Virus record (IMG/VR): IMGVR_UViG_3300028173_000001
DNA: 64,000 nt
Origin: an uncultured virus (IMG/VR IMGVR_UViG_3300028173_000001)
Lineage: Duplodnaviria; Heunggongvirae; Uroviricota; Caudoviricetes
Reading direction: 5' to 3' (one strand)
Shown here in pieces: positions 4,235 through 10,393 of this stretch; position 1 is the first letter of the stretch; the number at the start of each line of letters is the position of its first letter. Made by a program: the position numbers and the translations under genes. The notes below the pieces were generated by a model that saw only the letters and a program-made list of their open reading frames with translations, made no database searches and was not told the origin of the DNA.

Positions 4235-4981
4235 ATGCGAACGAATCAGTTTGACTACATGTATCGCCGCCCCGTCCGGAAGATTGTGCCCTGGACTCGA
4301 ACCACTTACAATGGGAGTCGGTTTCCTGGTGAGCGCAATGATTGTGCAGTTCGCGCGGCCATGACGGTCTCCGGAAAAACGTACAAAGAGGCACATGCTT
4401 GGGCTGAGCGACTCGGTCGCCGACCTCGCCGTGGGACACCAACTCATCGAATCTACTCGAGCATGATGACCGGCCGCCTGCTGGGCGTCAAAATCTCGAA
4501 GGTTCCCCACATTCATCCAAGCAAAAAACAGACGATTGGTGTGTTTCTTCGTGAGAACCCAACCGGCACGTTTTTCTGCCAGATGCGAGCCCATGTGTTC
4601 GCGGTCATTGATGGAAAATGCATCGACACGTGGGGTGTTCCCCTGGGCTCACGGATTGTGAATGCCTGGGTCGTTGGAACATACAAGAAGAAAGAAAAAC
4701 CTGCCAAGAAGAAGACTGCCAAAAAGGTTGTCAAGCGGGTTGGCGTCAAAAAGAAGGCCACGAAGGCAATGGCTCGACGAACTCGGGTCAAAAACAAGCT
4801 TGTCAAAAAGCTTACGCGAGATGGCATTCGTTTCGTACAACAGACACCGACACAGCTCATGCGCCTAATCGACGGCGATGTGAAAGTGTATGGCGACATT
4901 ATGTGGCTCTGCGCGAATGACAAAAGCTTCATTCGCTGTGATGTGGCCGGCACAAAACGAAAGCATTTCATCATCAAGTAG
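4235..4981 (+). CDS. papain-like (C39-type) fold protein with Lys-rich H1-like linker
   Basis: NDCAVRA ... HVFAVIDGKCIDTW (Cys-His-Asp spacing); KKKEKPAKKKTAKKVVK tract. Confidence 0.55.
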   Translation: MRTNQFDYMYRRPVRKIVPWTRTTYNGSRFPGERNDCAVRAAMTVSGKTYKEAHAWAERLGRRPRRGTPTHRIYSSMMTGRLLGVKISKVPHIHPSKKQTIGVFLRENPTGTFFCQMRAHVFAVIDGKCIDTWGVPLGSRIVNAWVVGTYKKKEKPAKKKTAKKVVKRVGVKKKATKAMARRTRVKNKLVKKLTRDGIRFVQQTPTQLMRLIDGDVKVYGDIMWLCANDKSFIRCDVAGTKRKHFIIK

Positions 4982-9112: not shown

Positions 9113-9333
9113 GTAATTCAAACCCATCACCCTTGATTCGAATAAACAGGACAATAGTAAGTAATAATACTGTCGTGCACGAGGGTTCCATTGGTCTCCT
9201 GGGAAATCCCACGCAGTGCTACAAAAACGTAAGAGGAATATACCAGAAAGGTGCACTGCGTCACACCGGGATCTTTGGAAACGTGAAAATCATCCTTTAT
9301 GAAAACGAGTTCGAACTGGTAGGTGATGAATGA
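9109..9333 (+). CDS. small SH3-like protein (paralog 2)
   Basis: EGSIG...LYENEFELV; ATGA coupling. Confidence 0.6.
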   Translation: MSNSNPSPLIRINRTIVSNNTVVHEGSIGLLGNPTQCYKNVRGIYQKGALRHTGIFGNVKIILYENEFELVGDE

Positions 9334-9542
9334 AGATCGGCGATGTAGTCAAGATTACCAAGACGGACATGTTGTACCCGTCGGTCGCAGTGGGAGATGT
9401 CGGAATGATCTGTTCTTCAGGTAAGATCGCCGGGGAGACCCATGACCCGATTTATGACGTGCTCATTGACGGATTCGTCGCTGCGTTTTACCCTGAAGAG
9501 TTTGTCATCATCGCGTGTAAAGCACCGAAAATCGTGGTATAA
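9330..9542 (+). CDS. small SH3-like protein (paralog 3)
   Basis: MKIGDVVKI...GDVG...FYPEEFVII; stops in TATAAT of copy 10. Confidence 0.65.
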   Translation: MKIGDVVKITKTDMLYPSVAVGDVGMICSSGKIAGETHDPIYDVLIDGFVAAFYPEEFVIIACKAPKIVV

Positions 9543-9567
9543 TGGATATGTCACCGGGATGCGACTC
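9514..9567 (+). promoter_or_regulatory. early-promoter repeat copy 10
   Basis: GTGTAA 9515-9520, TATAAT 9538-9543, GGATATGTCACCGGG. Confidence 0.85.
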
Positions 9568-9810
9568 TAAAACAGTCAATAAACTAAATGGAGCAAAATA
9601 ATGCCAAGCCCACGAGGGCCCCCGAAAATGTGACCCACTGCCGGGGGCGGCGAAAATAACATGAACGGAATAAATTGTGTGATTACAAAGCTAGACATCG
9701 TCAGGAGGGCGTAATGAATCGCATCCGAGACCAGCCCTAAGTTAAGGTCGGCGTCGACCTAGGGCATCAAAAAACATGGAATGTTAGGAAAAAGATAAAG
9801 TTTGACGTTT
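9550..9810 (+). ncRNA. candidate structured RNA / mini-ORF leader
   Basis: No long ORF after a consensus promoter; stems 9557-9567/9716-9726, 9618-9624/9642-9648, and a nested hairpin 9734-9765. Confidence 0.4.
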
Positions 9811-9880
9811 TCCCAATAATTTTGGCGTAGGTCCTGAACTGCAGGCGGGACGCGGGGTTCGACTCCCCGGTTGGGAACCA
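9811..9880 (+). tRNA. tRNA-like element lacking a D-stem (identity undetermined)
   Basis: Acceptor TCCCAAT/GTTGGGA + A + CCA; T-arm CGGGG-TTCGACT-CCCCG; 6-bp GTCCTG/CGGGAC stem with 9-nt loop; only 70 nt. Confidence 0.65.
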
Positions 9881-9901
9881 TTTTGAGAACGGAGAAATAA
9901 A

Positions 9902-10393
9902 ATGAAACTCGCATTAGGCCCAAAAGGGCTGCGCCCAAAGCGCACGCTTATCAAACTTGTCCAGAGTCCCTCAAAAACAAGTGTTGTAATCGTGCGCTCC
10001 CCAGTTTTTTCATTCAACGGAGAATCAACTATTGATTTCGGGGAGCTTGAAGAGCGAAAGCAGACTGTTCTAGAAGATGCAGAATTGTGGAGAGATCGGC
10101 CTGGGTTCATTCGAATTAATGATCCAGATGTCCTGATCGAGACTCAGCGGCCATGGGATGAGGACGAAGAGGTCAGCGTTGAGGTCGAGGTAAACGTCTC
10201 AGTTGAACTCGAAAATCCGGATTACGATGAGCAGCTCAAAAATTACAAGCGGTTCGAGCGAGATTGTAAGAAAGCAGACAAGAAGTATACGAGGGAGCTT
10301 GCCGAGTGGGAAGCCAAACAGGAAATAGTGAAAAACATTAGCAGCGATGAGTTGGATCAATTCATTGCATGGAAAAAGAGGAAAAACAAATGA
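9902..10393 (+). CDS. hypothetical protein with C-terminal coiled coil
   Basis: GGAG RBS; 163 aa. Confidence 0.7.
   Translation: MKLALGPKGLRPKRTLIKLVQSPSKTSVVIVRSPVFSFNGESTIDFGELEERKQTVLEDAELWRDRPGFIRINDPDVLIETQRPWDEDEEVSVEVEVNVSVELENPDYDEQLKNYKRFERDCKKADKKYTRELAEWEAKQEIVKNISSDELDQFIAWKKRKNK

Follow-up and report, generated by a model that had tools for sequence, protein, structure and literature searches.

In plant mitochondria, t-elements in the cox1 leader direct cleavage by RNase Z and RNase P and so define mRNA ends; the t-element sits 74 nt before cox1, and tRNA end-processing there sets the 5′ end of the mRNA (accessible portion of PMC1920247). This element of an mRNA 5′ leader combines a non-canonical cloverleaf with a perfect GGTTCRANYCC T-arm; it is organellar, is processed by RNase Z and a protein or RNA RNase P, receives its CCA afterwards and has mapped ends (PMC1920247, same portion). 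Hairpins made of an acceptor stem, T-stem and T-loop are cut at the canonical site by E. coli RNase P, whose ribozyme pairs with the 3′ RCCA, and T4 tRNA precursors are RNase P substrates (excerpts of PMC11143913). The bacterial RNase P model hairpins, which are synthetic and were tested in vitro, carry a 7-bp acceptor stem on a 5-bp T-stem, a T-loop, a purine discriminator followed by CCA, and a U at position −1 (same excerpts). The tRNA-like domain of tmRNA (RF00023) has a 7-bp acceptor stem, an unpaired D-loop that contains GG, a helix where the anticodon arm would be and a terminal ACCA, and the eukaryotic mascRNA/MALAT1 module (RF01684) is a tRNA-like module that ends a longer RNA, where the RNase P cut of mascRNA separates two products.

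Phage tRNA clusters hold pseudo-tRNAs and stable non-tRNA RNAs, such as two T4 stable RNAs of unknown role, which are tRNA-related and are processed together with their neighbours. To our knowledge, the punctuation of mRNAs by tRNA-processing machinery is documented in plant mitochondria and in tRNA–mRNA co-transcripts and is hardly catalogued in phages.

Here we describe a 70-nt tRNA-like module of a marine jumbo phage that lies between an early-type promoter and a protein gene. Coordinates refer to the window, the whole 64-kb stretch of DNA that was analysed, unless they are given as genome positions. The window covers positions 199,686–263,685, read on the minus strand, of a 318,267-bp record (completeness estimate, 93%); its + strand carries all long ORFs, and its PHROG matches include a head maturation protease, a helicase, PhoH, glycosyltransferases and a baseplate wedge protein. 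The DNA recurs in seawater and marine metagenome runs (20 runs from 17 studies), and none of the 20 sequencing runs listed with the stretch around the element is an RNA run. The phage is without a close relative among GenBank phages: neither a DNA similarity search nor tblastn with the neighbouring 733-aa ORF returned a match there, and its RadA-like protein found matches of at most 31% identity. We propose, with about even confidence, that the module is a lineage-specific, non-decoding, tRNA-derived element that would be processed and co-transcribed with the gene downstream. The competing view of a neutral tRNA relic is nearly as probable.

Sequence and fold of the module

The features of the locus are as follows.

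9515–9543, + strand: early-type promoter (GTGTAA at 9515–9520, 17-nt spacer, TATAAT at 9538–9543)
9550–9810, + strand: non-coding leader of ~260 nt, with transcription probably starting near 9550
9811–9817, + strand: 5′ strand of the acceptor stem, UCCCAAU (pair probabilities 0.87–1.0)
9818–9830, + strand: 13-nt region replacing the D-arm, AAUUUUGGCGUAG, which contains GG
9831–9851, + strand: arm replacing the anticodon arm, with two alternative folds
9853–9869, + strand: T-arm, CGGGG / UUCGACU / CCCCG (stems 9853–9857 and 9865–9869)
9870–9880, + strand: 3′ strand of the acceptor stem (GUUGGGA), discriminator A at 9877 and encoded CCA at 9878–9880
9891–10393, + strand: downstream gene (Shine-Dalgarno GGAG at 9891–9894, ATG at 9902, 163 aa)
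1017, 1738, 2616, 3672, 4187, 5890, 6358, 7553, 8426, 9535 and 10688, + strand: starts of the promoter motif TGNTATAAT in the window

The preliminary description had proposed a tRNA-like module with an encoded CCA at 9811–9880, and every sequence feature that it listed for these 70 nt is present. All seven acceptor positions pair (9811–9817 with 9870–9876), one of them as U-G, and the T-stem has a pair probability of 0.97. The T-arm fits the GGTTCRANYCC motif (GGTTCGACTCC at 9856–9866), and position −1 of the module is U (9810), as in the phage tRNA genes. Everything that marks the upper half of a canonical tRNA was found, namely a 7-bp acceptor stem, a 5-bp T-stem with G53-C61, a UUCRANN loop and a discriminator followed by CCA.

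We scanned the genome for a TTCRANN loop on a 5/5 T-stem, with a 7/7 acceptor stem at tRNA spacing and a CCA. The real genome holds 22 such sites, all of them on the transcribed strand; 21 lie in the tRNA region, and the module is the only one outside it. In 60 simulated genomes that matched the real one in size and dinucleotide statistics, the two strands together held 0 sites (53 when CCA was no longer required), so the upper half is not a chance resemblance. As a fold, however, an 81-nt stretch holding the module is not more stable than its shuffles (z = −0.54), which counts against a processed element.

The lower half departs from that of a tRNA. Region 9818–9830 has an A where tRNAs have U8 and forms no stable D-stem, in agreement with the unpaired 13-nt D region described before. 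In place of an anticodon arm, 9831–9851 can adopt two near-isoenergetic folds. One is the 6-bp stem GUCCUG/CGGGAC (9831–9836/9846–9851) with a 9-nt loop, AACUGCAGG, at −24.9 kcal/mol and a pair probability of ~0.31; in the other, the minimum free energy (MFE) fold, CCUG/CAGG closes a 5-nt loop and is enclosed by GCGU/ACGC in an extended arm, at −25.2 kcal/mol and ~0.54. The 6-bp stem with its 9-nt loop had been presented as the arm of this module; it does exist in the sequence, but as one alternative of two. A canonical lower half (3–4-bp D-stem, U8, and a 5-bp anticodon stem with a 7-nt loop carrying U33) was not found. Positions 3–70 are C9813–G9874, so the identity pair of alanine tRNA and tmRNA, G3-U70, is absent, as had been noted.

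ARAGORN in its default mode reported 0 genes in the window and placed none of its 40 genome-wide calls at the element, its tmRNA mode made no call there, and Rfam returned 0 matches to the element at gathering score. When E values up to 10 were admitted over 601 nt, the 17-nt T-arm alone matched, to tmRNA with 13.2 bits (gathering score of RF00023, 47 bits) and to mascRNA with 15.6 bits (gathering score of RF01684, 42.5 bits). A full-length tmRNA match is absent, since model positions 347–363 alone align, and the match to mascRNA-menRNA (RF01684) is below the gathering threshold and confined to the T-arm. The empty ARAGORN and Rfam searches and the non-canonical lower half exclude a canonical tRNA, and they agree with the earlier view of the element as tRNA-like yet non-decoding. 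Because its tRNA lower half no longer works, the module is most likely a cutting site or a relic rather than a decoder.

Compared with the described systems, the module shares with the tRNA-like domain of tmRNA the 7-bp acceptor stem, the unpaired GG-containing D region, a helix for the anticodon arm and ACCA, and its T-loop, TTCGACT, is also that of the phage's own tmRNA; unlike tmRNA, it has no G3-U70, mRNA-like domain or pseudoknots. It resembles mascRNA as a module in a longer RNA, but the latter is eukaryotic and the likeness is limited to the T-arm.

The distribution of defects bears on the neutral relic. All visible defects lie in the lower half (A8, no D-stem, the anticodon arm, C33 and a variable region of 1–3 nt), whereas the 35 nt of the upper half are free of them, which a tRNA gene in neutral decay would not lead one to expect. 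Ascertainment bias weakens this contrast of an intact top and a decayed bottom, since an element whose top had decayed would escape notice.

Early promoter, leader and downstream gene

The promoter at 9515–9543 has an extended −10 element (TG at 9535–9536, in TGgTATAAT at 9535–9543) and overlaps the stop codon of ORF 9330–9542. It is a member of a family, GTGTAA-N14-TGNTATAAT, with 47 sites on the transcribed strand of the whole genome; the TGNTATAAT part occurs 52 times on that strand vs 6 times on the opposite one. The preliminary description had counted the promoter ahead of the element as repeat copy 10, and it is indeed the tenth of the family in the window. The same family is present in the 284-kb relative G006.

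Family promoters are usually followed by ATATGT, a conserved GC-rich 5′ hairpin (GCCGGGGATGCCGGC-like) and then a Shine-Dalgarno site and ATG, and 40 of the 47 have an SD-preceded ORF start at most 61 nt downstream. From the promoter ahead of the element the distance to such a start is 358 nt, the second longest of the 47. Five of the six other long promoter-to-ORF cases lie inside the tRNA region, where at least one family promoter leads straight into tRNA-Trp. Terminator prediction gave nothing on the + strand between 9543 and 9902. The proposal that an early promoter drives the element is supported to this extent: an early-type promoter lies upstream, and no terminator is predicted on the + strand ahead of the gene that follows.

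That gene begins with an ATG 21 nt past the CCA of the element. Its 163-aa product (ORF 9902–10393) belongs to no Pfam or PHROG family and has no usable Atlas match.

The leader between promoter and module is as free of long ORFs as first reported, with none of 25 aa or more on the + strand between 9571 and 9901. The pairings that had been pointed out in it are also present: a long-range pairing of 9557–9567 with 9716–9726 (8 contiguous pairs, one C.A mismatch and 2 pairs), GCCCCCG at 9618–9624 with CGGGGGC at 9642–9648, and a nested hairpin at 9734–9765. Their interpretation as a structured RNA did not hold up. The 336-nt RNA folds with ordinary energy (z = −0.24; 38 of 100 shuffles are at least as stable), the leader has no Rfam family at gathering score, and a 330-nt sequence should, by our estimate, contain about one 8-bp long-range pairing by chance. 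Searches with blastn and tblastx found no paralogue of leader or element within the genome.

The + strand of the leader also holds three very short ORFs that abut one another, at 9589–9660 (23 aa), 9662–9714 (17 aa) and 9714–9740 (8 aa); the 8-codon ORF has an AGGAGG site at 9703–9708 and a TAATG stop-start overlap. By eye, the 5′ hairpin typical of the family is degenerate after the 9515–9543 promoter, and these mini-ORFs together with that hairpin could be the wreck of a small early gene that suffered a frameshift.

Conservation and origin

The preliminary description had looked to relatives for conservation of the element. None was detected in the 11 other viral records searched, G006 among them, and G006 has other genes at the syntenic locus. 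A covariance model (R1) built from the element alone found no counterpart across the 11 records; its matches there were real tRNAs and one tmRNA T-arm, and nothing else. Because a single-sequence model may miss diverged homologues and most of the records are fragments, this result reads as no counterpart found and not as proof of absence.

G006 is the closest complete relative (284,429 bp; helicase 70% and RadA-like protein 65% identical in amino acids). A scan of its whole record for an acceptor stem, T-arm and CCA yielded no uncalled element that passed, and upstream of its RadA-like gene stand different genes and no tRNA-like element. Synteny breaks exactly at the element locus, since our phage has small early genes there instead. 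In G006 that place is taken by a 172-aa ORF, a MoxR-like AAA ATPase of 361 aa and an ORF of 254 aa whose product, judged by eye, resembles a vWA protein. A search with the RadA-like protein recovered 7 viral loci at 51–54% identity, none with a tRNA-like element upstream of the RadA-like gene. In none of the relatives examined did a normal full tRNA occupy the element's position, as a simple deletion pseudogene would have led one to expect.

Other probes of the locus added few sequences. ORF 9902–10393 returned a single, spurious locus from viral records and was rejected as a locus finder there; in metagenomes it found the source contig, one 99.98% copy and two unrelated high-GC loci. ORF 4235–4981 found no match, and an exact 27-mer of the 3′ half of the element had 0 matches in viral contigs. 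A second metagenome contig (99.98% over 4,215 nt) carries the element unchanged, and contig pieces from four further DNA runs over 9597–10136 differ in zero letters. Covariation could not be assessed because all other copies of the element are identical. A relative at 75–87% nucleotide identity is represented by two IMG/VR contigs from one sample, both of which cover other parts of the genome.

These results, in which we see no sign of selection, are a point against a processed element. They would suit a neutral relic, that is, a tRNA gene from a fast-changing complement that took small deletions in its D-arm and anticodon loop and is decaying without a role, a reading that we regard as a tentative but serious possibility. 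It is consistent with the element's absence from the 11 records and its non-syntenic position in G006, with the ordinary fold energy, and with the degenerate hairpin and the mini-ORFs of the leader, which by eye resemble a broken gene. The phage has 39 tRNAs vs 8 in G006 (whose RNA genes also include a tmRNA), a difference that implies recent gain and loss of tRNA genes. At least three other degenerate tRNA-like elements, uncalled, stand on the minus strand of the tRNA region (their T-loops are at genome positions 33628, 26479 and 10682), with perfect T-arms and 6–7 of 7 acceptor pairs; one of the uncalled elements is 67 nt long, with a TCCA end and a very short anticodon-like arm. If the element is a tRNA in decay, it is what the fast turnover of tRNA genes in phages ordinarily leaves behind, and it warns that intact halves made of T-arm, acceptor stem and CCA outlast the remainder of a tRNA.

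A relic should have had a parent, and neither a parent tRNA nor, as noted, a paralogue within the genome was found. Among viral tRNAs with the same ends (5′-UCCC...GGGA-A-CCA; 80 of 115 loci fetched, 71 distinct strings), 43 of the 71 strings are tRNA-Gln, and the 9-nt loop of the element contains CUG. The 71 tRNAs are 73–89 nt long, none as short as 70 nt, and none could be accepted as the parent, the alignments being unconvincing beyond matches forced by the search pattern. A TTGAC motif was also rejected as a link to the phage tRNAs, as it lies upstream of 2 of 39 tRNAs vs a background of 5.4%.

The 3′ halves of tRNAs are common in phage attachment sites, and the element might be the remnant of such a site, copying the 3′ end of a host tRNA. 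We judge this origin, together with accidental resemblance, to be very improbable. The exact 3′ half, with one N allowed, had 0 matches in one genome of each of 185,579 prokaryote species; a looser pattern had 16 matches in prokaryote genomes, about the chance estimate, with 1 of the 16 within a tRNA, so that an attachment-site origin is unsupported. The element also has the matching 5′ acceptor strand, spaced as in a tRNA, of which an attachment site would have no need, and accident would have to account for a pattern that the simulated genomes did not produce.

Predicted processing, mimicry and decoding

Of the functions offered in the preliminary description, a tag for processing by RNase P and RNase Z is the best anatomical fit. 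The transcript from the promoter at 9515–9543 would carry the element as part of the leader of gene 9902–10393. In it, the upper half would present 12 stacked pairs (acceptor and T-stem), a canonical T-loop, A73 and CCA, and would be read by the enzymes that process tRNA ends; this half by itself is the part that bacterial RNase P and the enzymes of tRNA 3′-end formation recognise. RNase P is predicted to cut between 9810 and 9811, a cleavage expected because the element has the full minimal RNase P substrate (an acceptor/T helix of ~12 bp, a T-loop and a 3′ RCCA) and U at −1. The 3′ end would be trimmed to, or kept at, the CCA at 9880. An RNA of ~70 nt with a CCA end would be released, and the ~260-nt leader would be detached from an mRNA whose 5′ end would lie ~10 nt ahead of the GGAG at 9891–9894.

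The likeness to the plant t-element extends to the non-canonical fold, the GGTTCRANYCC T-arm and the place between promoter and gene, with probable co-transcription. The phage element differs in that its CCA is encoded, its processing is predicted from sequence alone and it has no sequence relationship to the t-element. It has the parts of the RNase P model hairpins as well; compared with these synthetic molecules (PMC11143913, as excerpted) it is natural, has an extra lower half and is a predicted substrate. Like the T4 stable RNAs it is phage-encoded and tRNA-related and has no known role, but those lie inside a tRNA cluster, whereas this element stands ahead of a protein gene near genome position 253,800, which puts ~215 kb of the record between it and the phage's own tRNA cluster.

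Should the predicted cleavage take place, a jumbo phage would be punctuating an early mRNA with the tRNA-processing machinery of its host. A cut so near the start codon would leave an mRNA with a 5′-monophosphate, however, which does not necessarily aid expression. We infer both the cleavage and any benefit to the phage; processing may be of use to it, or may be what incidentally happens to a tRNA gene in decay.

A bolder version of the proposal is that the module is purpose-built: a non-decoding, 70-nt, CCA-ended mimic, released early in infection and with its upper half under selection, which titrates a host factor that recognises tRNAs (for example a nuclease of a defence system, a modification enzyme or toxin, or a protein that binds the CCA or the elbow), or else a site where RNase P cleavage times the downstream early gene, in either case one example of a wider, as yet uncatalogued phage habit of placing tRNA top-half modules in early mRNA leaders. 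We consider this unlikely.

Quite unlikely, too, is a non-decoding mimic of early infection that acts as a decoy or sponge for a tRNA-targeting nuclease, a tRNA-modifying toxin or a tRNA-binding factor. Such a role would suit the early-type promoter, the intact, elbow-forming T-loop and the GG of the D region, and the CCA end could be maintained by the phage's own enzyme, an ORF of PolyA_pol/CCA-adding type (genome 292275–292649; 123.9 bits). Phage tRNAs have been proposed to counter tRNA-targeting defences (PMC10264068, in the portion accessible), which would likewise suit a mimic. Against it stand the absence of conservation in the relatives searched and a non-canonical anticodon stem-loop that is unstable here. 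Known anticodon nucleases recognise the anticodon stem-loop. The ideas of a decoy or of an SmpB, EF-Tu or RelA ligand, all raised in the preliminary description, are unsupported: the element is without G3-U70, and searches of the phage genome found neither an SmpB gene nor an RtcB-type repair ligase.

It is scarcely credible that the element is a working, odd-shaped tRNA, with a reduced D-arm and an anticodon loop of 7 or 9 nt, that is aminoacylated and decodes. ARAGORN at its ps70 setting does draw an Ala(UGC) cloverleaf here, and the acceptor ends match those of real viral tRNAs, mostly tRNA-Gln; the loop contains CUG. We rejected the ps70 call as uninformative because the same setting yields 14 calls in 3,351 nt. 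The cloverleaf lies 7 kcal/mol above the MFE fold. Two of the three pairs in its D-stem are G-U, its variable region is 3 nt long, and it contains an A.G mismatch and C33; the G3-U70 pair for alanine is not there. The Rfam tRNA model fails beyond the T-arm, and 70 nt is short beside the 73–89 nt of the viral tRNAs with the same ends.

A further tRNA would also come on top of a full set. ARAGORN (default, whole genome) makes 40 calls, 39 tRNAs and one tmRNA; the tRNAs are confined to genome positions 1,043–38,620 and serve all 20 amino acids. Rfam, over the whole genome, confirms 34 of them as tRNAs at 34–68 bits, and the tmRNA (genome 299,618–299,977; tag ANDNSEYSYAQAA) at 92 bits. By a manual count of the printed 3′ ends, 29 of the 39 ARAGORN tRNAs end in an encoded CCA.

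Other features of the tRNA region deserve mention. One ARAGORN tRNA (genome 28754–28827, minus strand) is given a four-letter anticodon, cata, in an 8-nt anticodon loop. A 131-nt Rfam tRNA match of 56.4 bits (genome 29691–29821, minus strand), which is not an ARAGORN call, may be a tRNA that bears an insertion or intron. Two promoters of the early family (235531 and 242348 in the numbering of the window; genome ~28155 and ~21338) precede a repeated leader of ~50 nt, whose differences look compensatory by eye (GGGGTTGCAC...GTGCAGACC vs GGAGTTGTAC...GTGCAAACC); this leader, ahead of tRNA genes, is possibly a small conserved RNA.
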